Shown here: one piece after another, positions 524 through 46,812 of the stretch | Layout: each line of letters begins with the position of its first letter | Position numbering within the stretch: the stretch's first letter is position 1 | IMG/VR virus record: IMGVR_UViG_3300012665_000794 | Coordinates: 1 to 55,703 of that record | Length of the DNA stretch: 55,703 nucleotides | Direction: 5' to 3' (one strand) | From: a virus | Taxonomy: Duplodnaviria > Caudoviricetes | Made by a program: the position numbers and the translations under genes | Notes under the pieces: model-generated | Database searches by the model: none | Seen by the model: only the letters and a program-made list of their open reading frames with translations | What the model was told of the DNA's origin: nothing

Positions 524-1978
524 ATGAAAATTACAGAATTACTAACCGAAGATCAACAACTATCCGAAGGTCCGTTGGCTAACAAGATCGGCACAGCAGT
601 GGGCAAGGGTGTAGGCACATTGGCCAAAGGTGTAGGCGCAGTGGCAGGCGGTGTAGCAGGCCTAGGAGCAGCAGTCAAAAAAGGATTTGCCGCTGGTAAA
701 CAAACAGTAGCAGGCGCAGGCGACACAGATCCAAACGCAGCACCAGCCGCAGGTGGTAATGCAGCCGCAAGTGGAGGAGCCGCAGCAGCACCAGCCGCAG
801 GTGGTAATGCAGCCGCAAGTGGTGGCGGAGGCGATGCAGCCGCAGCAGCACCAGCCGCAGGCAAAAAACCTGGATTTATAGCAGGCGTTAAAGCAGGACT
901 AGCGGGCAAGAAAGGACAACCGGCTGCTGAACCAGCAGCAGGTGGCGCAGCACCAGCAGCAGGCGGTGGAGCAACAGCAGCAGCACCAGCAGCGGGTAGC
1001 GCAGCACCAACAGCTGAGCCAGCTGCTGAACCATCAGCACCAACAGCACAAGATATTAATGCGCAAGGTCCAAAAGGCACAGCAGCAGCTAAACCACAAA
1101 CTGGCGCTGCGGCAACAGCTTTGAAGAAAACAGCAGATGCCACAGCAGGCGCTAGTGCAGAGAAAGCAGGACAAACTGTTTATGCTCAAGTTAAATCTCA
1201 AATCAATAACTTAGATAAGAAAGGCAAGCAACGTATTTTACAGTTGTTACAAAAGTCGTTGACACAGCCGGCACCAGCTGACAAAGCAGCCGCTGCGCCT
1301 GCCGATGCAGGCGCTGGAGCAATGGGACAAATGGCAGGACAGTTAGCTAAAGGCGGAGCAGCACAGCCTAACACTATGGCCAATGCTCCTGTTAGCAAAA
1401 CAAATACTGCTAAACCTGGTAATCCAAACGCTGCTCCAGCAGCCGGAACTACACAAGATGGTAAGCCTCAATGGGATCCGGCAACTGGCAAAGGTGCCAA
1501 ATATGATGGTGTTACAGGTGAAATGACACCTGCATGGAAAGCTGAACAAGATAAACAAGCTGCTGCAAAACAAACTAAAGCTGCACCTACGGCGGAACCA
1601 GCACCAGCACAACAAACTACTGGACAAGCTGCAACACAGGCAGCTGATGCCGGTGGAGATGCTGAAAAAGCAGCATTAGATACTATGAAAGCTAAAAATC
1701 CTAAATTAGCAGGCATGATGGCACAGGCTGGCATGGATGATCAAGGTAATGATGTTGCACCTGTTAAGAAGCGTGGAGGTCGTAAAGCCAAACCAGCAGC
1801 ACCTAGTCAAGCAGAAATTGATGCAGACCGTGAAGCTAGAATGGGTCCAACAAGTGATTCTATTATTAGAAATTATCCAGGTCTTGCAGAAACATTGGCA
1901 ACACGAGTTGAACAACACAAACGCAAGATGTTTGAAGACAGCCTAAGAAAAGGCGAAACTAGCATATTTGTAAAATGA
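524..1978 (+). CDS. Ala/Gly/Pro-rich low-complexity protein, putative internal head protein
   Basis: 484-aa ORF. N-terminus MKITELLTE...LSEG resembles a T4 capsid-targeting/gp21-cleaved leader. Function is inferred. Confidence 0.65.
   Translation: MKITELLTEDQQLSEGPLANKIGTAVGKGVGTLAKGVGAVAGGVAGLGAAVKKGFAAGKQTVAGAGDTDPNAAPAAGGNAAASGGAAAAPAAGGNAAASGGGGDAAAAAPAAGKKPGFIAGVKAGLAGKKGQPAAEPAAGGAAPAAGGGATAAAPAAGSAAPTAEPAAEPSAPTAQDINAQGPKGTAAAKPQTGAAATALKKTADATAGASAEKAGQTVYAQVKSQINNLDKKGKQRILQLLQKSLTQPAPADKAAAAPADAGAGAMGQMAGQLAKGGAAQPNTMANAPVSKTNTAKPGNPNAAPAAGTTQDGKPQWDPATGKGAKYDGVTGEMTPAWKAEQDKQAAAKQTKAAPTAEPAPAQQTTGQAATQAADAGGDAEKAALDTMKAKNPKLAGMMAQAGMDDQGNDVAPVKKRGGRKAKPAAPSQAEIDADREARMGPTSDSIIRNYPGLAETLATRVEQHKRKMFEDSLRKGETSIFVK
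737..861 (+). repeat. Intragenic direct repeat encoding AAPAAGGNAAASG
   Basis: 38-nt GCAGCACCAGCCGCAGGTGGTAATGCAGCCGCAAGTGG occurs at 737 and 785, with a partial third copy at 845. Confidence 0.85.
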
Positions 1979-2391
1979 AAATTAATGAAATAGTCACAGA
2001 AAGTGATGTAGGAGACCTTGCCAACCTAAGTGCTAAGAATGTCAGCACTGGATATGACGCGGTTAACAAATTATTTTCACCTTCACAATGGTTCAAAGGC
2101 AGTGTTAAAACTGATGATGAACCTATTGCTCAAAAAAGTGCGCCAGTAAAACAAAAAGTATCATCTACTGCACATTTAGAAAAAGAAGCAGTTATGGCTG
2201 CTAGTCAAGGTAAAGAATTATATAGAGCTGATCTTGCACAGATAAAAATTGTTTACCAAAAAGTTAAATCTGGAAAAATATCAGTAGACGATAATGAAAC
2301 AACTTTATTATCTCTCAAAGCCTTGCTCAAAGGACAGCAATTGTCTGATCAACAAAAATCTGCATTGGCTCAATTATCTAACCAACTTTAA
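1975..2391 (+). CDS. Hypothetical protein, putative internal head protein
   Basis: 138 aa with an MKINEIVTE leader like the preceding ORF. Its start overlaps the upstream stop. Confidence 0.65.
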   Translation: MKINEIVTESDVGDLANLSAKNVSTGYDAVNKLFSPSQWFKGSVKTDDEPIAQKSAPVKQKVSSTAHLEKEAVMAASQGKELYRADLAQIKIVYQKVKSGKISVDDNETTLLSLKALLKGQQLSDQQKSALAQLSNQL

Positions 2392-2591
2392 AAGAACGGT
2401 AGTCCTGTTTTTTTAGTAGTTTCGAGATTCTCTTTGATAATCTCGCCGATAATATCTCGCTCTTCCCAAGTTAAGTTCATGCCTTCTGCATAAGAAAGAC
2501 CTCTCATATACCAACACAATTTGAGAACTTCTTTCTTTACAGCCCTAACGTCTTTGTCCATCTTCTTGGACAAATCTATGATCTCAGGCAA
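2388..2591 (-). CDS. Small baseplate hub assembly protein (T4 gp51-like), possibly expressed as a -1 frameshift extension of the upstream gene
   Basis: 67 aa with LCWYMRGLSYAEGMNLTWEERDII, directly downstream of the gp26-like gene. Weak TTG start with no clear SD. Confidence 0.6.
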   Translation of the reverse strand: MPEIIDLSKKMDKDVRAVKKEVLKLCWYMRGLSYAEGMNLTWEERDIIGEIIKENLETTKKTGLPFF

Positions 2592-2599
2592 GGGCAGGC

Positions 2600-3466
2600 T
2601 TAAGATCTGGCGGCGAAAAAATTTGATTGATCCATAGTCACAGGCAAGTCAAACTGCTTATGACATTCTTCACATTCGGCATTTTGCACTTTCATTTCCA
2701 TTTGTTCTTTGATGCCTGTGACGTGTTTAGAGATTTTATCAAATACGTCTTTAGAACAGTTATTGATAAATTCTTTAATTTGTTTTTTGTCAGAAACATC
2801 ACCGTCTGGTGTGCTGATCGTAGAAATACAATCACCGATAACATCCACTGTGAGTTCTGTTAACTTGACAAAGCTCTTACCAAAGCGATCCATTTTTTCT
2901 TCATCGCTTATTTGATCATCATTGATAATATTAAAAATTCTTTGCTGTTCTAATGTTTTGATTGATGTTTTGGTAATTTCTTGATAGCTGTAAGGTCTTA
3001 CACGGATAGTCAATGGATCAAACGGAATGTCACTGACATAGTTAAAATTAGCAAACATGTTTAACCATAGATTAAGATCAATGTCATAACTGTTTTCGTG
3101 ATTGCAGTGAGGACAGTTTGCGCCCACTTCCATCATTTCACCGTAAGTGGCAATTCTAATAGCGATTAGCACAAAGTCTAAATCGATACTAGGCATCTTC
3201 CACGGATCTAAGATAGCTGGGAAACAACTTTTGATAACTTCCACAGTGCTTTGTCCAGACAATAATGCGTCTGGAGTTTTAAACATTAGTTCGTCTTTGG
3301 CTGTCATAGCATATACTGGATATTCTCCTGTAGTGCTAACATCTAATGTTCCGTTAGGATAAAACTCGCCATTTGAAGGTAGTTTTACATAGATCTTAGG
3401 TTGTCTAAACCAACCAGCCAGCGGGTTTTTCTTTGCTTCTGATTGCTGATTTAATAAATCACTCAT
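2600..3466 (-). CDS. gp26: Baseplate hub subunit / tail assembly protein (T4 gp26-like)
   Basis: ATG at 3466 with GGAGA SD. Motifs IYVKLPS, MTAKDEL, DLDFVLIAIRIATYGE and two CxxC pairs (CPHC, CEEC) fit the T4-like hub family. Confidence 0.7.
   Translation of the reverse strand: MSDLLNQQSEAKKNPLAGWFRQPKIYVKLPSNGEFYPNGTLDVSTTGEYPVYAMTAKDELMFKTPDALLSGQSTVEVIKSCFPAILDPWKMPSIDLDFVLIAIRIATYGEMMEVGANCPHCNHENSYDIDLNLWLNMFANFNYVSDIPFDPLTIRVRPYSYQEITKTSIKTLEQQRIFNIINDDQISDEEKMDRFGKSFVKLTELTVDVIGDCISTISTPDGDVSDKKQIKEFINNCSKDVFDKISKHVTGIKEQMEMKVQNAECEECHKQFDLPVTMDQSNFFAARS
2615..2624 (-). other. Candidate -1 programmed ribosomal frameshift site (A AAU UUU UUC)
   Basis: The minus strand reads TCA AAT TTT TTC GCC GCC AGA TCT TAA. 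The -1 frame (..TTT CGC CGC CAG ATC TTA AGC CTG CCC TTG CCT GAG) is open into ORF 2388-2591. Confidence 0.6.
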
Positions 3467-3534: not shown

Positions 3535-6234
3535 ATGGCCGGTGTAATGATTGATATTCCAGGAGTTGGTGTTGTCGAAGCCAAAAATGCGGCCACGGAA
3601 GCAACTTTAAAAGAAATACTTAAGGCCATTAACGAAGGCTCTGGTGGCGGCTATAAAAAAGGCGGCAAGCCTGGACTTGAAGAAAAAGGCAAAAGCGGCG
3701 GTAAAGGCGATGGTGGCAAGGAAGGTGGGGGCGGTGGTGGCAAATCTGCTCCTAGCATGTTTGGATTAGGAAAAGCTGTCGGTGCTGCAATAAGACCAAT
3801 ACAACAGGTCACCGGCGGCTTCATGGCCTTAGGCCAGCAGGCAACAAACTTGGTAAATTCGTTTGCCAATGTTGGAGACACTTTTTCAGGTGCTGCTTCA
3901 GTATTTTCTGGAATACCAGTATTAGGCGGAATATTTGCTGTAGTAGCCGCAGCCGCAGATAAAACTCTAGGATCGTATCAAGCTGCTACAGCATCTGGTG
4001 CTACATTTGGCGGTAGTATGAATGCGTTTGCTGGAGCTGCCAGTGCAGCTGGTATGACCATGGACAAGTTTGGTCAGTTGATTGCACAGAACGGCGAAGC
4101 GTTAATGATGCTTGGCGGAACCACAGAAAATGGTGCTAAACAATTTGCCAATATGTCTAAAGAAATTAGAAGCAGCGGTATTGGTTCTCAACTCTACGGA
4201 CTAGGCATGACCACTGCTGAAGTTAACCAAGGCATGGCCAATTACATTAAAACGTATGGAGCCTCTGGAGCACTACAAGGAAAATCAACAAGAGAATTAG
4301 CACAAGGTGCAGGACAGTATCTAAAAGAATTAGACGCACTGGCAAAAATTACAGGTCAGAACAGAGCTGAGTTACAAAAAGAACAAGAAGCAAGAATGAA
4401 AGACTCGCAATTCCGTGCGGCCATTGCTAATCTTGATGCTGACCAAGCTAAGATGATGAATAACTTTGTCAGCAGTTTCCCTAAAGAACAACAAGAAGCT
4501 GTTAAAGATATGATTGCCACAGGTAACATAACTTCTGACGCTGCTATCATGTTTAATCAACAGATGGGCGGAACTGCTCAAGAAGTTATGAACATGGGAA
4601 ATATTATCAAGAGTGGTGGTAAGTTAACTCAACAACAATACGACAATGCTTATAAAGGTGCAATTAGAGAAGCAAAAGTAGCTGCCGGCTCAGACGAAGC
4701 AAGAACACAGGCCTTATACAACAGTCAACAATTTGGTAACACTTACATTGGTCTTGCAGAATTAGCCAAACGAGATATCAACGGCAAAGAAAAAGCTCTA
4801 ACTGAACAAGAAAAAGCACAGGCAGCTCAGGCAGCAGCTATGGAAAAAGCCAAACAGAATTTAGCGGCATTTAGTAACAGTTTCCAAATGGCATTGGCCA
4901 ACAGTGGAATTCTTGATCTAATGTTAAAGGCTTTTGAAGTTGCAGCAAATCTAGTAATGAACTATGTGGTTCCGGCATTTCAAATTTTCTCAGCAGTGAT
5001 AACTGAAGTTGGAACATTTTTATTAGACACACTGAAACCTGTGTTTGCAGCAGTATCAGATTTTATTAGAGATACTTTATATCCTATATTCTTAGATTTA
5101 GCCGCAATAATTTTGGTCGATGTATGGCCGGCTCTTCAAGCAGTAGGTGACATAATTCAAACCTATGTATGGCCCGCACTACAGACTATCGGCGGCGTAA
5201 TAATGGATTATGTATATCCAGTATTTGAAAAGATGTATACATTTATTGCTGATAATCTACAACCTATTCTGTTAGCACTAGGAACTGCTCTGGTAGCATA
5301 TGCGGGTTATGTGACTATTATGAACGGATTGGAATTAATTAGGAACGGATTATTAATTGCATCTAGTTTAGGTCTAGGCGGTCTAGCCACCGCAGCATGG
5401 GCAGCTGCCGCCCCGATACTTGCCATTGCAGCACCAATATTAGCATTAATTGGTATATTCACTTATCTTTATAAAACAGGTTGGTCAGTTAGCACAGCGT
5501 TCGATGCTGTCAAAGACAACTTAGAAAGATTTGGTATGAGTTTTACAGAGATGCTTGATTTTATTAGAAATAAATTACCCAATGATTGGGGAGGCATTTC
5601 CGATGAAGAGAAAAAACTCAGAGATGAGGAAAGAACCAAACGTAGAGCTGAGTTAGATCAAAAAGAAAAAGATAGAGACAAAGAAAGAGAACTCAAAGTA
5701 GCAGAACGATCTTCTGAAAACAAAGCTGCCGAGCGCAAAGAAGCTGCACTTAAAATAGATCAAAAAATTGTTGACCTTAAAAATAAAGGCGCTGGTGGAT
5801 TATCAGCAGCTAACGATAAAGAACAAAAAGCTAGAGAAAAAGCTGCTGAATTAAAAGAACTAAACTACGAAGACACCACCCAATTACTCACTGGATTTGC
5901 TACTCAACAAAAGAGTGCATTTATTAAAAATCCAGAAAGCAATGCAGTTGCAGGTGCCGAAGGTGCTAGAAAAGCTGTTGAAACAGAAGCAGATAAAAAG
6001 GCTCAAACAGAAGCCAAGGTTAAAGCAGAAGCAGAAGCTAGAGCCAAAGAAGAAGAAAAAACCAAAGGAAATAGACCAGCACCGTCAACTCAAGAAAGTG
6101 CTGAAACATTGTTGGCTAGCTTAAATACTAAGATGGATCAACTTATAAAAATCAATAAAGGTGTTCACGATGTCAACGAGAAACAGCTTACTGTTCAACA
6201 GAGCTTTTCAGGCGATGTATTTGCCGCTGTCTAA
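3535..6234 (+). CDS. Probable tape measure protein
   Basis: 899 aa, Ala/Gly-rich and predicted helical. Five 15-aa Pro-spaced amphipathic repeats (5038-5265), a hydrophobic segment, and a charged coiled-coil C-terminus. Adjacent to the hub genes. Confidence 0.65.
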   Translation: MAGVMIDIPGVGVVEAKNAATEATLKEILKAINEGSGGGYKKGGKPGLEEKGKSGGKGDGGKEGGGGGGKSAPSMFGLGKAVGAAIRPIQQVTGGFMALGQQATNLVNSFANVGDTFSGAASVFSGIPVLGGIFAVVAAAADKTLGSYQAATASGATFGGSMNAFAGAASAAGMTMDKFGQLIAQNGEALMMLGGTTENGAKQFANMSKEIRSSGIGSQLYGLGMTTAEVNQGMANYIKTYGASGALQGKSTRELAQGAGQYLKELDALAKITGQNRAELQKEQEARMKDSQFRAAIANLDADQAKMMNNFVSSFPKEQQEAVKDMIATGNITSDAAIMFNQQMGGTAQEVMNMGNIIKSGGKLTQQQYDNAYKGAIREAKVAAGSDEARTQALYNSQQFGNTYIGLAELAKRDINGKEKALTEQEKAQAAQAAAMEKAKQNLAAFSNSFQMALANSGILDLMLKAFEVAANLVMNYVVPAFQIFSAVITEVGTFLLDTLKPVFAAVSDFIRDTLYPIFLDLAAIILVDVWPALQAVGDIIQTYVWPALQTIGGVIMDYVYPVFEKMYTFIADNLQPILLALGTALVAYAGYVTIMNGLELIRNGLLIASSLGLGGLATAAWAAAAPILAIAAPILALIGIFTYLYKTGWSVSTAFDAVKDNLERFGMSFTEMLDFIRNKLPNDWGGISDEEKKLRDEERTKRRAELDQKEKDRDKERELKVAERSSENKAAERKEAALKIDQKIVDLKNKGAGGLSAANDKEQKAREKAAELKELNYEDTTQLLTGFATQQKSAFIKNPESNAVAGAEGARKAVETEADKKAQTEAKVKAEAEARAKEEEKTKGNRPAPSTQESAETLLASLNTKMDQLIKINKGVHDVNEKQLTVQQSFSGDVFAAV

Positions 6235-6247
6235 GTGATAATATAAA

Positions 6248-7951
6248 ATGAGTTGGAAAAAATACTTTACTCCTGTTAACATCGATAATGCCAAATCGAT
6301 GAGTCCGCTTGGTAGCAGAGGCCGCCCAGGACCAGCACGATCAAATTACAGTTCGTTCTTGCCCGATGTTTATGCAGGAGCACCAAATCGTGTTGAGCGA
6401 TATATGCAATACGATACAATGGATATGGACAGCGAAGTCAATGCTGCTTTAGATATCCTTGCAGAGTTCTGCACACAGAAAGATAAAGAAAACTTTACTC
6501 CATTCCATATTGGATTTAGAGGAACACCAACTTCTACAGAAGTTAAAATTATCAAAGACAGTTTACAAAAATGGTGTAAACAAAATCAATTTGAAACAAG
6601 AATATTCCGCATAGTTAGAAACGCATTCAAATACGGAGATGTGTTTTTTGTTAGAGATCCGCAAACTAAAAAATGGTTGTTTGTAGATGCTACTAAAGTA
6701 ACAAAAATTATTGTCAACGAAAGCGAAGGCAAGATTCCAGAACAATATGTATTAAAAGATATTAATTTTAATTTCAAAGAGTTAATAGCAGTAACACCGC
6801 ATGGAACAGCAAATACAAGTCCAAGCGGCACAAGCTCTTATACTACAGGCGGCGGTTTTGGCCGCGGTATGGTAGGCGCAACAGCAAATACACCAGGAAC
6901 TAGATTTCAAAATGGTCAAAATGAAATTACTGTTGATGCAAACCATGTTATACATATTTCATTGTCAGAAGGATTAGACAACAACTATCCTTTTGGTAAC
7001 AGTCTATTAGAATCAGTATTCAAAGTCTACAAGCAGAAAGAATTGCTTGAAGATGCTATTATTATCTATCGTATTCAACGTGCTCCAGAAAGACGTATTT
7101 TCTATGTGGACGTCGGTAACATGCCAGCACACATGGCCATGAGCTTTGTTGAGCGTGTTAAAAATGAAATTCAACAAAGACGTATTCCATCAGCTACAGG
7201 CGGTGGTGCAAACGTCATAGACTCTAGTTATAATCCTCTAAGTGTCAACGAAGATTACTTCTTTCCGCAAACAGCAGAAGGACGTGGATCAAAAGTCGAA
7301 ACACTACCAGGCGGAACAAACTTAGGCGAGATCACTGACTTACGCTATTTTACAAACAAGTTATTCCGTGCTTTAAGAATTCCAGCTTCATATCTTCCAA
7401 CTGCTATTGATGAGCAGCCTAATACAATGGCTGACGGCAAAGTTGGAACAGCTTATATACAAGAATTACGATTTAACGAGTATTGCAAACGATTGCAATC
7501 GATGATTGTAGAAACATTTGACTTAGAATTTAAAGTATGGTTAAACAGTCAAGGTGTTAACATTGATTCTGGATTGTTTGAATTAAAGTTTAACAGCCCT
7601 CAAAACTTTGCTGCTTATCGTCAATCAGAACTTGACACAGCTAGAGCAGCAACATTTAGTCAAGTTGTTCAGATTCCGCATCTAAGCAAACGATTTGCTA
7701 TGAAGCGATTCTTAGGAATGACTGAGGAAGAAATTAAAGAAAACGAAAGAATGTGGAGAGAAGAGAATGGTTCTACTCTCACACCAAAAGTAGATTCCGC
7801 ACAGGATATGAGATCTGTAGGAGTATCTCCGGGAGGCTTATCAGCAGAAGCAGCCGGACAATCAGCAGAAGCACCGCCAGACATGGCCGCAGCAGCAGAA
7901 GCACCCGCAGAAGGCGGCGAAGCTGCACCGGCTGATCAGGTAGTTCAATAA
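6248..7951 (+). CDS. gp20: Portal vertex protein
   Basis: T4 gp20 signatures LLEDAIIIYRIQRAPERRIFYVDVGNMP, EDYFFP...GRGSKVETLPGG and YFTNKLFRALRIP. Confidence 0.95.
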   Translation: MSWKKYFTPVNIDNAKSMSPLGSRGRPGPARSNYSSFLPDVYAGAPNRVERYMQYDTMDMDSEVNAALDILAEFCTQKDKENFTPFHIGFRGTPTSTEVKIIKDSLQKWCKQNQFETRIFRIVRNAFKYGDVFFVRDPQTKKWLFVDATKVTKIIVNESEGKIPEQYVLKDINFNFKELIAVTPHGTANTSPSGTSSYTTGGGFGRGMVGATANTPGTRFQNGQNEITVDANHVIHISLSEGLDNNYPFGNSLLESVFKVYKQKELLEDAIIIYRIQRAPERRIFYVDVGNMPAHMAMSFVERVKNEIQQRRIPSATGGGANVIDSSYNPLSVNEDYFFPQTAEGRGSKVETLPGGTNLGEITDLRYFTNKLFRALRIPASYLPTAIDEQPNTMADGKVGTAYIQELRFNEYCKRLQSMIVETFDLEFKVWLNSQGVNIDSGLFELKFNSPQNFAAYRQSELDTARAATFSQVVQIPHLSKRFAMKRFLGMTEEEIKENERMWREENGSTLTPKVDSAQDMRSVGVSPGGLSAEAAGQSAEAPPDMAAAAEAPAEGGEAAPADQVVQ

Positions 7952-19531: not shown

Positions 19532-22500
19532 ATGGCAGAGTTTAAGATTAATAAATTTGCTTATACTTGGAAGGGAACCTGGACAAGTAGCACAGCATAT
19601 GTCAGAGATGACGTTGTAAGATACGGCGGTAGCTCTTTTGTATGTATTAGACCACATACAGCAGATACAGATTTTTATGAAGATTTGTATTATGTAATTC
19701 CCGGAGACACTGCACCAACACCGGCCTGGATAAAGATGACCGACGGTTTCTCTTATAGAGATTCATGGGCTGCAACAACAAAATATAATCTTGGCGATAT
19801 TATTCAATACGGTGGAAGATTATATCTTGTAATTGAAGACTATACTTCAACATCAACGTTTGATGATAATATAGGAAAACATGCTGTCTATGCTGAAGGT
19901 TCTTCATGGACAGGTAACTGGGCCGCTGCTACAAGATACGGCATTGGCGATCTAGTAAAATACAACGGTATCGTTTATAGATGTATCACTGGTCACACTT
20001 CTGCATCAACTTCGTTGGGAATTGAGGTAGATCAAGCCAAGTGGTCTACTTATTATGAAGGCATTGAATATAAAGATGTATATGCTTCTGGTGTAAGATA
20101 TAGAGTAAACGACCTAGTTAAATTTGGCGGAAGCATTTTAAGATGCACCACCGGACATACTTCTACATCTACACTTAATAATTCTTATTGGACCATTGAT
20201 CTACCTGGAAATAATCCTGTAGGCGATTGGACAAACACTGATCAATATGCAATTGGAGACATTGTAAAACATGGCGGTTACATGTATGTTTCTAAAACTA
20301 ACCACACAGGAATCAGTCCAGGAAATGAAGACTTCGGTGCTGCTAACTGGTTAGTAATATCTAAGGGTCAAAATTTCAGAGGATCTTGGAATTCAGAAAC
20401 AGTATACAAAACAGGTGACGTTGTTCAACGCGGCGGCCAAGTCTATGTTGCTACTCTTGACAGTTCCACAGACGGCAGCTCGTTAGATTATCTCGAAGCT
20501 GGTTCTTGGGAAGTAATTGTTCCTGGCGAACAGTGGAGAAATTATTGGGCTACTGATTCACAGTATGCAGTTGGCGATGTGATAATATTTGACGGTTCGG
20601 CTTATAAATGTAACTATGCACACACTGCCGACAGTCAAAACTATCCAGGCGACAACGGATCTGGATTTGTATATTGGTCATTACTGTTACAATCTGGACC
20701 AAACACTGGTCTAAGACAACGAGGTGATTTATTAACCTATGATTTACAGAGAGGCCTTGCTGGAGACACCAGCACAATTGGTGTTACTGCTGTTGAGATA
20801 GGAACAAACACACACCTATTAACAATTAACCAAGAAGATAGTTTATACTACAAAGCATTTAACGAACTAGCTAGAGAATTATATGTTGCCCCTAACGGCT
20901 TTGACGAGCCGGGAAGAGGACACAGTATTTTAAATCCTTTTAAAACAATTAGATACGCTTGCGAACGTGCAGAGGAATTAGGATATGCTGTTGAAACTAA
21001 TATCTATATTAGAACAGGCACATATCAAGAAATATTACCAATTATTGTTCCAAGAAAGACAGCATTAAAAGGCGAAGAAGTTCGTGCTGTAGTAGTTGAG
21101 CCAAATGAGCCAATTGCGGCATTGGCCAATGATGTCACCTATACTTTAGATATCTTAGCTAGAATGCGTGAGATACTACCAGACGTTATCGTAGGAGATC
21201 TAGTAACTCCTACTGCTGGAAACAATATTGATCAAGTTGTGTTATCAGGAGAAAGTGATAGCATGACTGCAACAACACTTACCGGATTAATCGACGATGT
21301 AAGTGATTATATTAACTACAAGTTAAACAACGGAACATCAAATCCAACAGTGTCTAGTTCAAATGACCCTACAACAGATTCGATGATTATAAATGCTACA
21401 TTGCAATTAGAAGCAAATATTGAATTCCTTCAAGAAGAAGCCGTGGCATTTATGCAGTATTATTATCCTAACTACACTTTTGATTCTAACTTATGTAGAA
21501 GAGATATTCAGAGATACATTAATGCGTTTATATACGACTTAACTTATACAGGAAACTATAAATCTGTATTTGCTGCAAGATACTATTGCAATGCTGTTAC
21601 AGGTTCTAATCACGAAGATATGTTTTATGTCCGTGATGCCACTGGTGTAAGAAATATGACCTTACAGGGTCTTCAGGGAACATTGAGTTCAACACTATAT
21701 AACGGAATATTCCGCAAGCCCACAGGCGGTGCCTATGTTTCTTTAGATCCAGGTTGGGGCCCAGATGATGAAAGAGTATGGATTACCACAAGATCATGTT
21801 ATGTTCAAAACGTAGCAACATTTGGTTACGGTGCAATTGGTCAAAAGATTGACGGAGCACTGCACAATGGTGGTAATAGATCTATTGTTTCCAACGACTT
21901 TACTCAGGTTATTTCTGATGGTGTTGGCGCTTGGGTATTAAACAACGGTAGAGCAGAACTTGTTTCTGTGTTTACATATTATTCTCATGTAGGTTACCTA
22001 GCAGAGAATGGCGGTAAAATTCGTGCTACCAACGGTAACAACTCATACGGAGATTTTGGATCGTTGGCTGTCGGTAATGATCCATCAGAAACTCCTAGAT
22101 ACGGTAATGTCAACAACAGAAATAATGAAGCAACCGTGTTGTCTGCGTTTGCAGGCGAAGTTAATGATTTTATCTTAACACTAGAATTTGAAAATGCTGG
22201 ACAGAATTATACACAGGCAACATACAGTATTATTGGTTCTGGAACTGGAGTTGATGTATTACAAGAAGATTTTAGAGACAAGGCAGTATTTTATCCTAAA
22301 CTTATAAATCCTCAAGATTCGTCATTGCCAGGCGGTGCTGGATTTATTGTAATTCAAAACAATGCACAAAGTGGTGATGCCACTAGTATTACTATTGCAT
22401 CCAACGACAATAACGAAGAATCTAAATATTTAGGTATGCGTATTGTTATTACCTCTGGAGTTGGAACTGGTCAATACGGTATTATTACTGGTTACAACAC

Positions 22501-25003
22501 ATTAACAAAAGTTGTGTCAGTTAAAAGAGAAAGCGACGGCGTAGCAGGTTGGGATCATGTGGTCCCAGGTTTTCCTATAGCTCCGTTGTTAATTAATTCA
22601 ACATCATATAGAATTGAAGCATTAGTCACATTTGATGCACCTCCATACATTACCAATGCACTTACATTACCAGTAAGCACATATTGGAGTAATGTAACAT
22701 ACGGTGAAACTCAAGAATCATTTGTAAATGTTTTAGGTTCGGCACCAGCAGGAACAACAATAGATATTCCTACTTCGATTGCAGCATGGAATGTAACAAA
22801 AACTGCTCGAACATACACAGTTGCTATTGGTGGATCTTCAGGCGCAGGATATGCTCTAGGACAACAGGTAATATTAACAGGCGATGATCTAGGCGGAGTT
22901 ACTCCAGATAATGACATCACTATTACAATTACTGGAATATCCAACGACAGCACAAACTCGATTACCAGTTATACCTATGAAGGTATAGCATCAAGTGGCC
23001 GTTTTGTTATTATTCCTTCAACAGGAACCAGTGCTATAGCATCTAAAGATGGAATTAGTTGGGAAAATTCTACATTACCAGCAAGTAGAGAATGGAAGGG
23101 GATAGCATCGGGTGCAAATAGATTTGTAACTATTGGTTACAATTCAGCATCTGTAGCACAATCTTTAGATGGAATAAATTGGACTGAGAGATCAATTGCA
23201 ACTAGACAATGGAATGCTATAGCCTTTGGTGGCGGAGTGTTTGTTGCAGTTGCAGGAAACTTGAACAGCTCAGGAAGAAGCACAGACAACGGAACAACAT
23301 GGACAGTTTCTAATAACCTTCCAACATTAGGTGATTCAACAATCAACGAATGGGTTGATATTGCCTACGGTAAAAACATGTTTGTGGCTATTGCAAACAG
23401 CAATAACGTTTATGCTATGAGCAACGACGGTGGTGCAACATGGACTGGCGGAATCATGGACGTTATTGCAGATTCAAGCCAAAAGGACTGGGTCAGCATT
23501 GCCTACGGTAGAGATCGTTTTGTGGCAATTTCAAGTCAAGGAGACATAGCTTATAGTTTTGACTCTGTAACTTGGTATCCGGGCACAATGCCAACACAAG
23601 ACGGATCAACTTCTATGAATTGGAAGAGTCTAACTTACGGTAACGGAGTATTTGTAGCAGTATGTGATACTGGATCAAGAGATATATTTGGAGATCCTAC
23701 AACAGGGCCAACAAATTATATGGCTACATCCGAAGATGGTATTGTATGGACAGGTAGAGAACTTTCCAGCTATCAAAATTGGATTGGTTGCGCATATGGA
23801 AATCCAGATATTACCCTTGATGATTCTACAGTTAGAGATCTTGGAAACAATACACCAACATGGATTGTAATTTCAGGCGATCAAACTAACGTGATAGATT
23901 TAGTTAAAGTTGGTTCTAGAGCAAAAGGTCGTGTAATACTAGCCAGCGGAAGAGTTGGCGGAATTAAATTACTAGATCCAGGTTCTGGTTATGTCAGCGG
24001 AAGTCCTGATGTAACTGTTTATGATCCAAATGCAGCAGCAGCACCATTCTTTAATAACAGAGTAGCAGACGGTGTTCTAGGACAGCCAAGCTGGTTGAAT
24101 AGAGGTAATGCTTATAAGACATCGACAACCAGGGTGACAGTGTCAGGAAACGGATTTGCAGATGTTATACCAGCTAATAGATATGTAACTCTTAGCGGGC
24201 TAACACAATATCCAAGACCTGGAGCACAGTTTAGATTTGATGGCAATCCTGAATTATACACAGCAGTGGTTATAACACCAATCACCGGCACATCATTTGA
24301 TGGACTAACAGCTAGATTCCAGATACAACCTTACTTTAATGTAGACAACGGTCCTGTGAATAATACACTGGTCGAAATTCGTGAAAGATATTCGCAATGT
24401 CGTATTACAGGACACGATTTCTTAGATATAGGAACTGGAAATTTCTTAGAAACCAACTATCCAGAATTATATTCTTCAGGCGATTTCTTCAAAGCACCTG
24501 AAAATGAAACTGTAGAAACAGATGGTGGTCGTGTATTCTATACATCCACAGATCAAGACGGTAACTTTAGAGCAGGTGAACTGTTTGCAGTTGAACAGGC
24601 CACAGGTATTGTTACAATTAGTGCTGACTATTTTGATTTAAATGGTCTATCAGAATTGGCGCTTGGTGGTGTTAGATTAGGTGGAACCGGAACTGTTATT
24701 AGAGAGTTCTCGACAGATCCGTTATTCAGTGCTGATAGTAATAATGTTATTCCAACACAGCGAGCTATTAAGGCTTATCTAGCTAATAGATTGAGTGTTG
24801 GCGGAGCAGATATTGCTACAGCCAGCTTTATCGCTGGAACAGTAAAAGTTGGTCCTGGCGAAATTCGTAGCACAATTAATGGGGCAACAGTATTTCCTCA
24901 AAGAATGGACTTTTATGGTTCAGATGCAAGTGGTAGAAATGGATCGATCAATGGAACAATATTAGCTCAAACGCTGTTCTATAGATCGTTTAAGCACAGA
25001 TAA
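19532..25003 (+). CDS. Giant virion structural/fibre protein (1823 aa)
   Basis: N-terminal W....Y..GDVV.YGG..Y.C...H repeats (CBM5/12-like), a beta-helix-like region, one CxRD helical repeat, and S.DG..W (Asp-box) propeller repeats. Paralogue of the next ORF. Confidence 0.75.
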   Translation: MAEFKINKFAYTWKGTWTSSTAYVRDDVVRYGGSSFVCIRPHTADTDFYEDLYYVIPGDTAPTPAWIKMTDGFSYRDSWAATTKYNLGDIIQYGGRLYLVIEDYTSTSTFDDNIGKHAVYAEGSSWTGNWAAATRYGIGDLVKYNGIVYRCITGHTSASTSLGIEVDQAKWSTYYEGIEYKDVYASGVRYRVNDLVKFGGSILRCTTGHTSTSTLNNSYWTIDLPGNNPVGDWTNTDQYAIGDIVKHGGYMYVSKTNHTGISPGNEDFGAANWLVISKGQNFRGSWNSETVYKTGDVVQRGGQVYVATLDSSTDGSSLDYLEAGSWEVIVPGEQWRNYWATDSQYAVGDVIIFDGSAYKCNYAHTADSQNYPGDNGSGFVYWSLLLQSGPNTGLRQRGDLLTYDLQRGLAGDTSTIGVTAVEIGTNTHLLTINQEDSLYYKAFNELARELYVAPNGFDEPGRGHSILNPFKTIRYACERAEELGYAVETNIYIRTGTYQEILPIIVPRKTALKGEEVRAVVVEPNEPIAALANDVTYTLDILARMREILPDVIVGDLVTPTAGNNIDQVVLSGESDSMTATTLTGLIDDVSDYINYKLNNGTSNPTVSSSNDPTTDSMIINATLQLEANIEFLQEEAVAFMQYYYPNYTFDSNLCRRDIQRYINAFIYDLTYTGNYKSVFAARYYCNAVTGSNHEDMFYVRDATGVRNMTLQGLQGTLSSTLYNGIFRKPTGGAYVSLDPGWGPDDERVWITTRSCYVQNVATFGYGAIGQKIDGALHNGGNRSIVSNDFTQVISDGVGAWVLNNGRAELVSVFTYYSHVGYLAENGGKIRATNGNNSYGDFGSLAVGNDPSETPRYGNVNNRNNEATVLSAFAGEVNDFILTLEFENAGQNYTQATYSIIGSGTGVDVLQEDFRDKAVFYPKLINPQDSSLPGGAGFIVIQNNAQSGDATSITIASNDNNEESKYLGMRIVITSGVGTGQYGIITGYNTLTKVVSVKRESDGVAGWDHVVPGFPIAPLLINSTSYRIEALVTFDAPPYITNALTLPVSTYWSNVTYGETQESFVNVLGSAPAGTTIDIPTSIAAWNVTKTARTYTVAIGGSSGAGYALGQQVILTGDDLGGVTPDNDITITITGISNDSTNSITSYTYEGIASSGRFVIIPSTGTSAIASKDGISWENSTLPASREWKGIASGANRFVTIGYNSASVAQSLDGINWTERSIATRQWNAIAFGGGVFVAVAGNLNSSGRSTDNGTTWTVSNNLPTLGDSTINEWVDIAYGKNMFVAIANSNNVYAMSNDGGATWTGGIMDVIADSSQKDWVSIAYGRDRFVAISSQGDIAYSFDSVTWYPGTMPTQDGSTSMNWKSLTYGNGVFVAVCDTGSRDIFGDPTTGPTNYMATSEDGIVWTGRELSSYQNWIGCAYGNPDITLDDSTVRDLGNNTPTWIVISGDQTNVIDLVKVGSRAKGRVILASGRVGGIKLLDPGSGYVSGSPDVTVYDPNAAAAPFFNNRVADGVLGQPSWLNRGNAYKTSTTRVTVSGNGFADVIPANRYVTLSGLTQYPRPGAQFRFDGNPELYTAVVITPITGTSFDGLTARFQIQPYFNVDNGPVNNTLVEIRERYSQCRITGHDFLDIGTGNFLETNYPELYSSGDFFKAPENETVETDGGRVFYTSTDQDGNFRAGELFAVEQATGIVTISADYFDLNGLSELALGGVRLGGTGTVIREFSTDPLFSADSNNVIPTQRAIKAYLANRLSVGGADIATASFIAGTVKVGPGEIRSTINGATVFPQRMDFYGSDASGRNGSINGTILAQTLFYRSFKHR

Positions 25004-25039: not shown

Positions 25040-28000
25040 ATGGCAGAATTTAAATTAGGTAGAATTAGATTTGTATGGAAGGATAACTGGACAACAGGAA
25101 CCGCATACTATAAAGACGATGTTGTTCGTCAAGGCGGTAAAACTTTTATTTGCACGGTAGGTCATACTGCCGCTGCTGATTTCTATACAGACCTTAGCTT
25201 TGTTCCTACAAAGTGGAATCAAATGACCGATGGTCAGGAATGGAAAGGAAACTGGACCACTGCTACTTCTTATAAAGTAGGTGATACAGTTAAGTATGGC
25301 GGAACAGTTTATATCTGTAGAACATCGCATACATCTGCATCTACATCTGCTCTAGGTTTAGAAAACAGTATTGCTAACTGGGATACCTTTGCAGAAGGAT
25401 TTGATTGGAAAGGCGATTGGGGTATTAATACTAGATACAAACCCAACGATGTTGTTTCCTATGGCGGTATCACATACATCTGCGTAACTGGCCATACATC
25501 TGCTTCAACTACTGGTTTAGGTTTAGAAAATAATTCTGCTGCATGGGAAGAATGGAATACTGGTCTTGAATATAAAGGCTCATGGAGTGGTTCAAGTGTT
25601 CGATACAAAGTCAACGACATTGTTAAACACGGCGGTGGCACATGGATTTGTATAACTGCCCACACTTCTCAGGCATTGTTTACCACTGACGAAGCAAAGT
25701 GGAGTCAATTCAATGAAGGTATTGAGTTTGAAGGTGACTGGTCAGGTGCAACAGCATACCAAATTGGCGATATTGTTCGTTACGGTGGTAATCAATATGT
25801 TGCCAAAACAAACAATACTGACGAAAATCCAAGAACCAGCACAGCAAACTGGGATTTATTCTCAGAAGGTTTTAAATATAGAAACGCACATGCTCTAACC
25901 ACAAGTTATCTAATCGGTGATGTGGTAAGACACAGCGGACACATTTATCTAGCTTCAACAGATTCAACAGCATTACAATTTACCTGCACCAGCACATTGG
26001 GTGCTTCAGAAAGATTTGTAATGTCTACACCGACCACCAATGTTCAAGTTGGTCAAGCTGTTCGTTTCTCCGGAACCACATTCGGCGGAGTTTTAGCAGG
26101 CGCAACTTATTACGTTAAAACAGTAGTAAGCCCTACAGATATTACAATCTCTACTACTCCAGGCGGCACAACATTTAACGTTCCAGGCAATGCTTCTGGA
26201 ACAATGACAGTAGATATCGGTTGGTTACCAAGTCAAGCAGAAGCATCTAGCGTATGGACTAGATTAAACAGCGGTCTAAATTGGATTGGTGAATGGCTGG
26301 ACGACACAGAATACGATACAGGCGATGTTGTTCGTTACGGTGCTAACTCTTATGTTTGCGTAGCTCGTCATAGATCAGACGGCGACGACGGTTCTACAAT
26401 AGGAACACAGGGCGGCGGACAATCTAACAGCCGTCCAGACAGAGATTCTACCGGAACATATTGGAATATTTTAACAATTGGAACAGAAACCAGTTTACTA
26501 ACCACAAGGGGTGACTTAGTTTACTTTGGTGGCGCAGGCCCAACAAGATTGCCAGTAGGACTTGAAGGTCAAGTTTTACGTGTCAGCGAAGACGAAATTC
26601 CAGAATGGTTTACAATTGGTAAAGTTGATCATGTTTACTACGTGGCGAATCACGGAACTGATCAACCAGCACCAATTCACGGTTTAACTGTTGACAAACC
26701 TTGGTCTAGCATACGCTATGCTTGCGAACAAGTATTAGCAGGTCCAAGAAATTTAAATGCAGCAAGATTACTTGAACTTAATAGAGCGTTTATTCAAAGA
26801 GAAACAGTTGAGTGGATTGAATCTCAAGTTTCTAGTAACACTGCACCATTTACTACATCATTTACATTCAAAGACGATCGTTGCGAAAGAGATGTTGGAT
26901 ACATTATTGATGCAGTTATCTGGGACATCCGTCATGGCGGAAATAGAAAGACTAGAGAATCGGCATTATCTTATGTTAATGATGCTCCAAGATTCTATAC
27001 ACTAGGTCAAGAAGCAGAAACTGTAGCAGCTATTAATTATTCATTGACTGTTATGAATAATGTGTTAGATCAAACAGCACCGGTAGCAAATTATCAAACA
27101 TTAAACGGAGATAATTCGACAGCTATTGTTGCACAGTGGACTGATTCTAGTATCGCAGCAGAAACTGGTATAAAAACCACAGTAGCTGGCCTAGTAGAAA
27201 TTGTTACAGATGCTATCACTGCTGGTGTTGACACAGACATTCCAGCAGAGTATTTGCCAAGCACAATTATTCACGTTAAGACAGGTCGTTATTTAGAAGA
27301 ATTACCAATCGTAGTTCCAGAAGGATGCTGTTTGTTAGGTGACGAAGTTCGTTCAGTCAATGCTGGACCAACTGCAGGAACAACAAACATTGCAGACGCA
27401 TACTACTCACTACAAACTCTATCTAGAATGGAGTCAATAGTAGGTGACATTGTAGTAGGAACCACAGTGTCTAAGACTTCTGGTAATACTGCTAGCCAAT
27501 CAAAATTGTTCCCGTATGCTGATACAACACAGCAAACCACAGTTAAGCAATTGGTAAGAGCAATCCGTCATAGTATTGATTGGAGACTTGGCACTATGAA
27601 TCTAGCTTCATACCCAGATCCAACAAGTTATAACTCAGGATACCTAGTTGGTTACGGTGATGCCAGAACACAACTGCTACTAAACAAAGAATATTTCAAA
27701 GTTGAAGTTACAGCATTTATCGATGCTAACTACCCAGATGTATATTACAGCAGAACAAAATGTCAACAAGACGTTGGATATATTGTAGATGCTCTAGTAT
27801 ATGACTTAACTTATGGTGGATATCAACAAAGTATCACAGCAGGACTAGCATATTTTAATGGTGCTGGCGGCGCAATGGCCATTGACTCTGAAGAGTTGGG
27901 AGCTACAATTGCAGCTATGAATCATCTAAAAGGCATGGTTCAAGATGCTATCGTGTTAACTCCAACAGGCGGCGATCAAAACGAAATCCCACAGTGGAGA

Positions 28001-31000
28001 GCAGGCACAGCAGGATCGGCAGGCTCTGTAACATTTGTTGGTCAAGCGTTTGATTATATTATTGGTATTGTAACAAATGGCACAACTGGTGCTCCATCGG
28101 CTACTATTACTACTATTGCTAGCAATACAACAATTACAACTTTAGTATCACATGGACTACAGGCTGGTGATACATTTACTCCAAGAACTAGTGCTAATGG
28201 ATTAGTTAAAGGTGTAACATATTTTGTTAAAACTACCCCAGCGCCTGATCAAATAACACTAGCACCAAGTTTTGATGGCACTGCAATTACATCATTAACC
28301 AACGGAACAGGCTTATCTATTGTCTGCGACATTGTTAACTGGCCATTGACTTCTTGGGCAACAGGTTCACAGGTTACTGCCTACACTATTTTAAGTGCTG
28401 CACAAGAAACAATTGTTCAAAATGTAATTGATGATTTAAATGCTGTGGCATGGCATACAGATTTTACAGTTGATGCAACATCATTGACTACTACACAATT
28501 CCGTGTATATGTAGGTAAGACAACTTTTGCTCACACTTATGTAAGCGGAGGAATTGTAACCAAATCAAACGGAACTACATTAGCAATTACAGGATTTACC
28601 TATAACAATTCAACAGGTTATGCAGTTGTAACTACTGCTACACACGGTCTTTCAGCTGGTGATCTAGTAGATATTGAAAACGTTATACTTTCTTTTGTTG
28701 ATCCTTCAAAGAGCCCAACTACTAGAACTGTAACATTCCCAAGTGCGACTGATTATAATACCGGGGCTGCTAAAGTTTCATATCTACAATACAAGTGCAT
28801 TAGAGACATTGGTTTAATTCTAAATGCAGTTGGTTACGATGTAATGTTTAACAGCAACTATCAGTCTCTAAGAGCTGCTTATTCATATCTAAGATCTACA
28901 GCAACAGAAGTGTTTAGCTTAGGCCAAAAAGCAGTTACAAGAGATGCATTGTTAAATGCTAAGACCGAAGCTAAGGCTAACGTTGGTGGCGACTCTACAG
29001 CACAAGCACGTATTGAAACGCTGATGACTTTGATAGATGATATTATCTATAGCGGAAGCAATGAAGGCAGCAATCAAACTACAGATTCTAACAGCCTACA
29101 CCATGCTGCTCGTCAGTTAGAGTTGAACAAAGACTTTATGGTTGCAGAAATTTCTGCTTACATCACTGCTACGTTCACAGGATCCGCAACTGGTGTTGAT
29201 GGACCTACAAACAGAATTACCTGTGCAACTAACACATGGTTAAAGAGAAATGCTGCTATTAGATTTACTGGCACAGTATTTGGCGGAGTTCAAACTGGCG
29301 TTACATATTATGTAAGAGAAGTAGCTAATTCCACACACTTTACTCTTTCTCTAACACCGTATGGATCTGAAGTGGATCTAAGCACAGCTACAGGCACAAT
29401 GTCATTTGCATTGTATTACGATTCAGCACTATGTTTAAGAGACGTAGAAGCATATACAGATGCATTGAAGTATGATTTAATTTACCCAGGAAATTACAGA
29501 TCATTGTTAGCTGCTCGTTACTATGCTAATTCTGTAAAAGGCAGCTTAGAAGAAGACATGTTCTATCTAAGAAATGCTACCGGTGTAAGAAATATGACCA
29601 TGGAAGGTCTAACTGGTGATTTAACTTCTAACAATGATTACGGAACACGCCGTGTAACTGCTGGTGCATACTGTTCGTTGGATCCAGGTTGGGGTCCAAA
29701 TGACGAAAGCGCATGGATTAGAACACGTTCACCATACATTCAAAACAATGCAACATTTGGTAGAGCTGCTGTTGGACAAAAGATTGACGGATCTCTACAC
29801 AATGGTGGTAACAGATCTATTGTTTCCAACGACTTTACACAGTTGATCAGTGATGGTATTGGTGCATGGGTAACTAATAATGGTAGAGCAGAACTTGTTT
29901 CTGTGTTTACATACTACTCACACATTGGTTACCTAAGTGAAAACGGAGGTAAGATCCGCGGCACAAACGGTAACAACTCATACGGTGATTTTGGTTCTGT
30001 TGCTGAAGGCTTTGATGCTTCTGAAACACCAAACGTGGGTATGGTTGACAACAAGTATCAATTTATTGCTACTGTAGGTTCAGCATTCACTGACGGTCAA
30101 AGGGTTCTAAACTTAGAATTTAATAACGCTGGATCAGAATACACTACCGCTACCATGAACGTAACAGGTTCGGGAGCTAGCGCATCTGTAGAAGCTGATG
30201 AGTTCCGTGATGATGCAGTTTTCCAAGTTAGACTATTAGACTTAGGCAACGATTCATCTGGACAATACGGCGGCTCAGGTTATGTAACTAACAGTAACAC
30301 AGCACAGGGCGGAACAAGCACAAGTATTACTATTGCTGCAACTGACCAAGAGATTAACTCTGCATACGTTGGTATGAAAGTTTATCTAACAGGTGGAACA
30401 GGTGCAGGGCAGTATGGTATTATTACATCTTATAATGCTGGAACTAAACTAGCTGCGGTTGTAACAGAATCAACAGGTGCAAGTGGATGGGATCATTTAG
30501 TTCCTGGAACTGCTATTACATCACCTGATGCTTCAACAACTTATACAATTGAGCCAAGAATTTCGTTCACAGCTCCAACATACACATCAACAGCCAGCAC
30601 ACTAAACAGTTCTGCAACTTGGGATGATGTAGATTATTCTAATTTAAGCAGAGGTTATGACAGTGTATCTGGAACTACAAACGGTTCTGGAACAGGTGCT
30701 ACTTTCTTAGTTCTTAAGAAAGGCACAAAGTATAATGTCATTACTAAAACTGCTGGAACTGGATATCAAAGATTAGACACTATTACAATTGCTGGAACTA
30801 ACGTTGGCGGTGCTTCTACAACCAACGATATTACATTAACTATCACAGCGGTTAATTCAACAACTGGTGCTATCCAGGCATTTGACACAGACGGTTATGG
30901 ACAAGGCGGTCACTATGTAGCTGTTTCAACAGGTGCTACAACCACTAACATTTCTCCAAGCGGAACAGCTTGGATTGCAGGTGGTGCAATGCCAAGTTCA

Positions 31001-33747: not shown

Positions 33748-34599
33748 ATGCCGTTCAATTATCAGTCATTAAAAAATATTACCGATCAAGCTATCGTTGA
33801 CGGCTCCATTGATTCTGTAGACATTGCCGATGGTGCTGTTACAGGCACAAAAATACAACTTGGAAACGTAACTGCTGGAAAGCTAGGCTCGGGAGCAGTT
33901 GATTTAGGTTCTTCAACTACTACAGGAACACTGCCTATTAATAAAGGTGGTTTAAATCGAACTACTCTAGGCGGAGCCTATCAAGCATTATACAGTGACG
34001 GATCAAATTTACAATTTAATCAACACGGTATACAAGGTATGCAGGTCTTTACAGGCGGTGGCACATGGAATAGACCAAGTGGCGTAAGATACATATTAGT
34101 TCAAGTGCAAGGCGCCGGCGGTGGTGGATCTGGTCACGGAGAAGGCGGTGGCGCTGGTGGATATGCAGAACGTTATTTAGACGTTACTGGTATTGGATCA
34201 GTGGGTGTTTACGTAGGTGGCGGCGGTGGTGGCACGTATTATGCTAACGCTGGCGGTAACGGAGATTATGCAGCATTTGGACCATACATTTCGGCAGGTG
34301 GTGGTCATGGTGCTAACAGACAAAACCAACACAGCGGTGGTGTTAGTGGTGCAGGATCAGGTGGAAATTTAAACTTACACATGGGCGGCGGCTTTAGCCA
34401 TCATGCTCGAAGTGCCCAATCCAATGCCGATACATTTTGGGGCGGCGGTGCACCGAGTAGTCATCCACAGGGCGGACATTTTGCGCATAATCACCAAACA
34501 CATTGTTCGCCAGGCACAGGAGGAGCCGGAGCTCACTTCCACGGACATAGAGGTTCAGATGGTAGACCGGGTCTAGTTGTTGTTACTAGTTTTTATTAA
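33748..34599 (+). CDS. His/Gly-rich fibre or adhesin-like protein, paralogue 1
   Basis: MPFNYQSLKN N-terminus, FT..GTW..PSGV glycine-rich domain, and HPQGGHFAHNHQ. Confidence 0.7.
   Translation: MPFNYQSLKNITDQAIVDGSIDSVDIADGAVTGTKIQLGNVTAGKLGSGAVDLGSSTTTGTLPINKGGLNRTTLGGAYQALYSDGSNLQFNQHGIQGMQVFTGGGTWNRPSGVRYILVQVQGAGGGGSGHGEGGGAGGYAERYLDVTGIGSVGVYVGGGGGGTYYANAGGNGDYAAFGPYISAGGGHGANRQNQHSGGVSGAGSGGNLNLHMGGGFSHHARSAQSNADTFWGGGAPSSHPQGGHFAHNHQTHCSPGTGGAGAHFHGHRGSDGRPGLVVVTSFY
34036..34094 (+). repeat. 59-nt perfect repeat, copy 1 (copy 2 at 35775-35833; 23-nt core at 34929-34951)
   Basis: GGTATGCAGGTCTTTACAGGCGGTGGCACATGGAATAGACCAAGTGGCGTAAGATACAT is identical at both sites. Confidence 0.9.
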
Positions 34600-34610
34600 G
34601 AGAGATATCG

Positions 34611-35468: not shown

Positions 35469-35480
35469 TAGAGTAAAAAA

Positions 35481-46804: not shown

Positions 46805-46812
46805 TATTTATG
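46805..46812 (-). promoter_or_regulatory. Late promoter-like motif CATAAATA
   Basis: Overlaps the halogenase stop codon, 20 nt upstream of the small gene. Confidence 0.5.

Follow-up and report, generated by a model that had tools for sequence, protein, structure and literature searches.

A gp26-like gene on the minus strand of the viral record IMGVR_UViG_3300012665_000794 (Duplodnaviria; Caudoviricetes; IMG/VR, positions 1 to 55,703, a stretch of 55,703 nucleotides (nts) that is called the window below) probably carries a programmed -1 ribosomal frameshift, by which the gene would yield a 288-amino acid (aa) short form and a 359-aa long form of a tail assembly chaperone, similar to the G/GT pair of phage lambda. 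The source is an uncultured giant freshwater phage that belongs to an abundant freshwater clade. The initial annotation of this DNA had proposed a G/GT-style frameshift joining the gp26-like open reading frame (ORF) to a short ORF downstream, and this proposal is supported by the conservation of the heptamer, its register and the -1 linker, by the lack of a conserved start in the downstream frame, by covariation in a downstream hairpin, and by relatives that encode the collinear chain in one frame.

The slippery heptamer and its conservation

The 288-aa protein matched PF12322 (T4_baseplate) with 75.1 bits (cut-off 24.5, E 8.2e-21) over positions 7-218 of the 219 in the profile, and the baseplate hub family phrog_150 with an E-value of 1.2e-22. 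It contains two CxxC pairs (C118, C121, C265 and C268), which were invariant among 40 aligned sequences. The gene begins with an ATG at 3466 with GGAG upstream, and ends with a TAA stop at 2602..2600, its 3′ end in the 0 frame being CAA TCA AAT TTT TTC GCC GCC AGA TCT TAA. The initial annotation had read TCA AAT TTT TTC on the minus strand just before this stop and had recognized two overlapping heptamers of the X XXY YYZ type in it, and both statements were confirmed: the string is located at 2626..2615, and A AAT TTT and T TTT TTC both lie in register (Table 1). A slip on either of them would give the identical protein. According to an excerpt of PMC4066793, U_UU.U_UU.C is among the frameshift-prone heptamers listed for Escherichia coli.

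TTTTTTC was found 21 times in the window, compared with 22.4 expected from shuffled sequences. Since this is the chance frequency, the heptamer by itself is uninformative, and it is the place, the register and the conservation that exceed chance. For the conservation, we used IMG/VR loci and a phage collection in which the relatives amounted to 95 records of giant phages with 30-35% protein identity; 11 isolates of these were examined (PA5oct, Phosso, Atu_ph07, RaK2, A4, Turkey5, XbC2, XaC1, Hallingskeid, CBB and slurp01). TTTTTTC was present in register at 91 of 91 loci, comprising all the 80 IMG/VR loci (60-91% protein identity) and all the 11 isolates, and at all of 73 further, more distant two-frame IMG/VR loci. 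Conservation of the heptamer and of the -1 register in homologues was a check that the initial annotation had called for, and the outcome was that both are kept in 164 of 164 two-frame relatives, with the -1 linker open.

The run of T was exactly six, and never longer, at all the 73 distant two-frame loci, where it was measured. In every isolate the gene ended with xxT TTT TTC followed by 1-11 codons and the stop. All the seven positions of the heptamer were invariant in the 74 distinct 130-nt stretches compared, and the third-codon positions on both sides varied. The codon before the run of T always ended with T (AAT, AGT, CAT, CGT, GAT or ACT) and the Phe pair was always encoded by TTT TTC, both the conserved T and the TTT TTC being synonymous choices. 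Only T TTT TTC was universal, and A AAT TTT was lost wherever the codon preceding the run was CAT, AGT, CGT, GAT or ACT. T4 gp26 has the same Phe-Phe near its end but encodes it by TTC TTT, and the -1 frame is closed there.

Conservation of the -1 frame and lack of a start codon

From the heptamer, the -1 frame reads FFRRQILSLPLPEIIDLSKK... and shows no stop until the TAA at 2390..2388, so the frame is open into the 67-aa ORF as had been annotated. The predicted long form consists of residues 1-284 of the gp26-like protein and 75 residues encoded in the -1 frame, 359 aa in all. The frame was open for 71-79 codons from the heptamer in all the 11 isolates, and the open linker was kept in every two-frame relative examined. 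In all clades, the motif FFRxxLL/IL was kept in the -1 frame from the heptamer onward, and the 0-frame tails varied from 1 to 11 codons (for example A, E, RES, AARS and DLSFSSQTQKK, each ending at the stop). Because the motif is kept while the 0-frame tails differ in both length and sequence, it is the -1 frame that is selected after the heptamer. The sequence of the extension differs between the RaK2-type and the WYMRG-type groups.

The 67-aa ORF was said to have only a TTG start and no clear Shine-Dalgarno (SD) sequence, and this was correct: a script search found no SD-like word 5-16 nts upstream of the TTG at 2591. When 72 distinct loci were compared, 13 of them had no ATG, GTG or TTG within the first 34 codons of the downstream frame, and only one had, within 20 codons, a start preceded by an SD-like word. 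The downstream ORF is without a conserved start codon. Gene callers give it inconsistent lengths in the relatives, for example 63, 67, 69, 71, 92 and 95 aa. In the records of the isolates, 9 of the 11 list a separate small hypothetical ORF, the start of which differs between records, nothing is annotated there in PA5oct and RaK2, and in none of the 11 are the two frames joined.

A covarying hairpin downstream of the heptamer

The region downstream of the heptamer (2614..2552) folded with -18.4 kcal/mol (z -3.83), and the stem in the window pairs 2607..2601 with 2586..2580. In the near clade the stem is 10 bp with a 16-nt loop and begins 3-4 nts after the heptamer. In an alignment of 58 sequences, 91% of the cells in the stem were paired and 30 cells were changed on both sides, and none of 500 shuffles reached this level; when the partner was slid by one column, pairing dropped to about 50%. 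The columns 15 and 42, for example, form GC in 39 sequences, AU in 18 and GU in one, and are unpaired in none. PA5oct has a comparable hairpin (z -3.8). A search of Rfam at 2380..2720 gave no family (E <= 1). The covariation is good evidence of the hairpin, short of proof because both arms are also coding and the aligned sequences share descent.

An additional feature of the stem is that both arms (2576-2611, minus strand; alignment columns 11-20 and 37-46) contain the palindrome AGATCT, with the consensus AAGATCTT, meaning that a self-complementary word, repeated directly, makes up the stem. Read in the -1 frame, the arms code for x-Ile-Leu. An arm may also be able to fold back on itself or pair with a second molecule.

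Long forms encoded in one frame

A profile of the extension was built from 19 sequences (the window and IMG/VR) and searched against 1.84 billion representative proteins, which gave 330 proteins at E <= 0.001. Among the best 150 matches, 19 were proteins of 319-351 aa that end with the extension, the match starting at profile position 2. These one-frame long forms match the extension at their C-termini with E-values of 1e-22 to 1e-9, and PF12322 precedes the extension in all six of them that were tested. The junction is collinear and gapless, D Q S N F F R R Q I L in the window being aligned with D Y C N N F R N Q I L in one of these proteins (P0131), indicating that a slip on the heptamer would give exactly the chain that the relatives encode in one frame.

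We also compared 80 more distant IMG/VR loci, of which 7 encode a one-frame long form without TTTTTTC and 73 are split, all of these with TTTTTTC. These distant loci were retrieved by an alignment query, and P0131 as a single query retrieved no IMG/VR loci. When five one-frame records were searched, each of them held a second, adjacent PF12322 paralogue on the same strand and without the extension, a pattern complementary to that of the window, the record of which has a single PF12322 match. Among the close relatives, a search for longer homologues as fused forms gave one 145-aa protein and no fusion.

In four of the five one-frame records (G001-G005, loci L174-L178) the short PF12322 paralogue has no CxxC pairs and scores only 20-31 bits, and for this reason the short partner appears strongly diverged in the one-frame phages.

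Comparison with T4 and lambda

PF12322 scores were 216 bits for T4 gp26, 178 bits for T4 gp51 and 75 bits for the window protein. T4 gp26 (208 aa) consists of PF12322 only, and gp51 (249 aa) consists of PF12322 in residues 1-201 and a tail of 48 residues; CxxC pairs are seen in both sequences. The short/long logic of T4, with gp26 as the short and gp51 as the long protein, is thus the same as in the window. In contrast, T4 uses two divergent genes, gene 26 being divergent from the 51-27-28-29 cluster, and has no slippery site, whereas the window has one gene with a heptamer. The lengths also differ, 208 aa for gp26 versus 288 aa for the window protein, and 48 residues for the gp51 tail versus 75 for the extension.

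The sequence link to T4 is distant. Using tblastn at E 1e-5, no link was found between the window protein and T4, and the extension found close relatives only. When the profile of the extension was aligned with the profile of the T4 gp51 family by hhalign, a weak match was obtained (E 5e-4, probability 31%), in which residues 41-75 of the extension are aligned with 223-259 of gp51; neither hhalign nor hmmsearch gave a significant match between the extension and the single T4 gp51 sequence. The name gp51-like, which the initial annotation had given to the downstream ORF, fits the tail only, as gp51 itself is PF12322 with a tail, and the link between the two tails is this weak one. An objection to the same name from gene position, that genes 26 and 51 are divergent in T4 and gene 25 follows gene 26, was considered and dropped once gp51 proved to be a tailed PF12322 paralogue. 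As for the tail in other phages, the T4 gp51 homologues P0275-P0366 carry the precomputed family PF28602.1 beside PF12322, which may be the gp51 tail, and the listed matches of the window extension carry no precomputed Pfam family.

According to excerpts of PMC10274946 and PMC12846349, Vladimirov, Gautam and Davidson (Virology 2022;566:9-15) already assigned genes of the gp26/gp51 type in T4-like phages to the tail assembly chaperones. Citing the same study, the excerpt of PMC12846349 names poly-T sequences as -1 frameshift signals in TAC-N genes of T4-like phages, and that of PMC10274946 states that, in place of frameshifting, some T4-like phages carry a short gene together with a longer, fused one. 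As summarized in these two excerpts, some T4-like phages are in the slip state and others in the two-gene state, and both states are seen among the relatives of the window. The equivalence to G/GT in a T4-like lineage, which the initial annotation had suggested, was accordingly described before. Our literature search on gp26, gp51 or baseplate hub combined with frameshifting found nothing on this frameshift besides Vladimirov et al. 2022. Thus, the frameshift principle in T4-like phages was already published in 2022, and the present case is solid but unsurprising.

The arrangement in the window shares several features with lambda G/GT: a short ORF that has an X XXY YYZ heptamer within a few codons of its stop, a -1 extension without a start, a tape measure gene (in the window a probable one) next to it, and two products (in the window predicted) with the N-terminal part in common. 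The heptamer itself is U UUU UUC in the window and G GGA AAG in lambda, and the window protein is about twice as long as a lambda-type chaperone and has four conserved Cys residues. A comparable frameshifted pair of tail assembly chaperones is E/E+E′ of P2, and a conserved -1 frameshift of these genes in long-tailed phages was reportedly described by Xu, Hendrix and Duda in 2004. Among the giant phages, the proteins of the 'baseplate hub' genes of RaK2, PA5oct, Atu_ph07, Phosso and the other isolates are homologous to the window protein (30-35%) and have the heptamer, the register and the -1 extension in common with it.

Proposed mechanism and alternative explanations

In the explanation that we favor, most ribosomes would read the 0 frame to the stop at 2602..2600 and produce the 288-aa short chaperone, the presumed equivalent of T4 gp26. 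A fraction of the ribosomes would slip back one base on U UUU UUC, where the tRNA-Phe on UUU at the peptidyl site (P-site) and that on UUC at the aminoacyl site (A-site) could both re-pair with UUU, and the hairpin located a few bases downstream may help this slip. The slipped ribosomes would then read 75 further codons and produce the 359-aa long chaperone, the presumed equivalent of T4 gp51. If they behave like lambda G/GT and T4 gp26/gp51, the two forms may act in the assembly of the complex of baseplate hub and tape measure, and a fixed slip rate may set the ratio of the short to the long form.

The same 359-aa protein would also be made if RNA polymerase added an extra U on the six T's in some of the transcripts. 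As the run consists of a single base and the product would be identical, transcriptional slippage would also account for the conserved run and -1 frame. The four sequencing runs compared consist of contigs only, with the RNA-library contigs covering parts of the gene, and they give no measure of slippage or expression, nor does a lack of coverage carry any information; as contigs over the site cannot show rare variants, an insertion at a low level is possible. The length of the run argues against it, being exactly six in the window and never longer in the relatives measured, whereas known bacterial sites of transcriptional slippage are homopolymer runs of about 8-9 or more. In addition, the covarying hairpin lies downstream at a distance typical of stimulators of ribosomal frameshifting, and slippage needs no such element. 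Weaker evidence in the same direction is one RNA-library contig spanning the site (X6 record 8, 2483..2687) without an inserted base, which is a consensus contig from a library that may contain DNA. Taken together, we consider slippage of the polymerase unlikely.

It is also quite unlikely that two separate proteins are made, the downstream ORF being translated alone by re-initiation or from a weak internal start, such as the TTG at 2591, into a free peptide of about 67 aa. Such a TTG is present, the stop and a start overlap as ATGA in Phosso, Atu_ph07 and Turkey5, and most isolate records annotate a separate small ORF. These annotated starts are, however, inconsistent and absent from PA5oct and RaK2, the downstream frame is startless in its first 34 codons at 13 of the 72 loci, and only one of these loci has a start with an SD-like word. 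Moreover, the -1 frame conserves FFRxxLL, which lies upstream of every candidate start, the two parts work as a single chain in relatives with one-frame long forms, and separate translation leaves the invariant wobble T and the choice of TTT TTC unexplained. The simplest alternative, an accidental T-rich stretch with a short open frame or a gene broken by a homopolymer sequencing error, draws on the ordinary frequency of TTTTTTC in the window. It is refuted by the conservation counts, the same arrangement being found at all the 164 two-frame loci in independent assemblies and isolates, and the downstream frame being conserved as a protein in the 330 library matches.

Several points weigh against programmed frameshifting to a pair of chaperones, or limit it. 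Part of the run of T is explained by coding, since Phe-Phe is conserved as protein even in T4. The hairpin of the window itself has 7 bp and is shorter than the 10-bp consensus, and five of eight RaK2-type relatives showed no clear hairpin in single-sequence folds (z 0.1 to 1.2). Coupled re-initiation is possible in Phosso, Atu_ph07 and Turkey5, because the ATG overlaps the stop. A second paralogue elsewhere in the genome is also possible, because the record of the window, which has one PF12322 match, is only about 15% complete. As to position, the gene and the probable tape measure gene diverge, whereas in lambda the tape measure gene follows G/GT and shares its strand. The slipping itself, the slip rate and the chaperone role are what we infer.

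Structure comparison is part of this balance. The model of the short form had a predicted local distance difference test (pLDDT) score of 83.2, and that of the one-frame relative P0131 had 89.8, with the extension forming confident helices. The P0131 model gave 50 matches in BFVD at E <= 0.001, and the named ones include baseplate hub proteins of the gp26 and gp51 types. Less favorable to the chaperone role, a Foldseek search of PDB gave no match at E <= 0.001 and no solved tail assembly chaperone, and a wide VIA-align search returned only generic helical-hairpin rows (Z <= 8.0) with no tail assembly chaperone; the sequence profile searched against PDB gave nothing below E 0.4. The missing match to a chaperone in PDB does not show that the folds differ.

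Genes around the proposed frameshift site

The initial annotation had placed the proposed frameshift site next to the tape measure gene. The adjacency held, as the gp26-like gene adjoins a gene for an 899-aa protein that is probably the tape measure protein, judged from its similarity and position; the two are transcribed divergently, unlike in lambda. The 899-aa protein matched ORF088 of RaK2 (BLASTP E 8e-8), which is described in the RaK2 record as resembling a tail tape measure protein. It had no match among the Pfam and PHROG families, and its BLASTP similarity to T4 gp29 was not significant. The full gene order of the window, with the portal gene, the large structural gene and a gp26-like gene diverging from them, recurs in RaK2, and in PA5oct and Phosso a large divergent gene lies beside the gp26-like gene. 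The family scan of the window found no tail tube gene among the window genes.

Table 1. Positions of the elements discussed in the text, numbered from the first letter of the window
Feature	Position	Strand	Basis or remark
gp26-like short form, 0 frame, 288 aa	2600..3466	-	PF12322 T4_baseplate, phrog_150
Slippery heptamer T TTT TTC (U UUU UUC), X XXY YYZ register	2615..2621	-	4 codons before the 0-frame stop
Overlapping in-register heptamer A AAT TTT	2618..2624	-	unconserved outside the near clade
-1 frame extension, 75 codons (RRQIL...GLPFF) and stop	2388..2615	-	open frame; conserved as protein
67-aa ORF, the extension as seen by a gene caller	2388..2591	-	TTG start, unconserved; distal part of the extension
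Hairpin, 7 bp in the window	2580..2607	-	fold and covariation; begins 7 nts after the heptamer; 0-frame stop within the 5′ arm
899-aa gene, probable tape measure protein	3535..6234	+	BLASTP to RaK2 ORF088; gene order
Portal gene, T4-type	6248..7951	+	PF07230, E 5e-109

On the other side of the extension, a plus-strand ORF of 138 aa (1975-2391) converges on the extension ORF (2388-2591, minus strand), and their 3′ ends overlap by 4 nts, so that a terminator would have no space between the two. This 138-aa ORF had no match among the Pfam and PHROG families. The two ORFs before it (1-522 and 524-1978, plus strand) are rich in Ala, Gly and Pro, have no family match and share the C-terminal motif LDKKGKQRI..LQK; they may be paralogous low-complexity structural or scaffold proteins.

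Other features of the window lie further away. Two giant tail-fibre genes (19532-25003 and 25040-32932, plus strand; phrog_9851) encode proteins of 1823 and 2630 aa, and are followed at 33748-36335 (plus strand) by three tandem paralogues of phrog_863, 'tail fiber assembly', with 283-285 aa each. Four genes are similar to tryptophan halogenase (36952-38571 on the plus strand; 46808-48361, 48339-49847 and 49844-51343 on the minus strand), matching phrog_2928 with E-values of 1e-84 to 8e-146; it is unusual for a phage to carry so many genes for one kind of enzyme, here within a 55-kb fragment. Between the first and the second of them, at 39566-46611 (plus strand), about 11 ORFs of 200-265 aa lie back to back on the same strand; the first two of these were scanned, and the first is similar to 2OG-Fe(II) oxygenases (phrog_81) and the second to a minor coat protein (phrog_1644). 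Two further 2OG-Fe(II) oxygenase-like genes are found on the other strand at 51336-52525.

Implications for giant phages

A wider reading that combines these results is possible, though somewhat less likely than not as a whole. It holds that a very large and mostly uncultured group of giant phages, comprising the RaK2, PA5oct, Atu_ph07 and CBB types and the freshwater clade, recodes its chaperone gene in this way; that the long form is missing from the 11 isolate records and possibly from the literature; that the covarying hairpin, the arms of which are copies of a palindrome (AAGATCTT), would drive the slip; and that relatives may have switched between one slip gene and two tandem genes.

The predicted 359-aa long form is absent from all the 11 isolate giant-phage records and from the gene calls of the relatives that were seen, and the annotation of a conserved assembly gene is corrected by it. 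The short/long chaperone logic of long-tailed phages would thereby be extended to the giant phages related to T4. The 164 slip-type loci and the 7 two-gene loci make a clean comparative set for studying what fixes the balance between the two forms, and the switching between slip and two genes, if true, would be a natural experiment on the setting of the short-to-long ratio.

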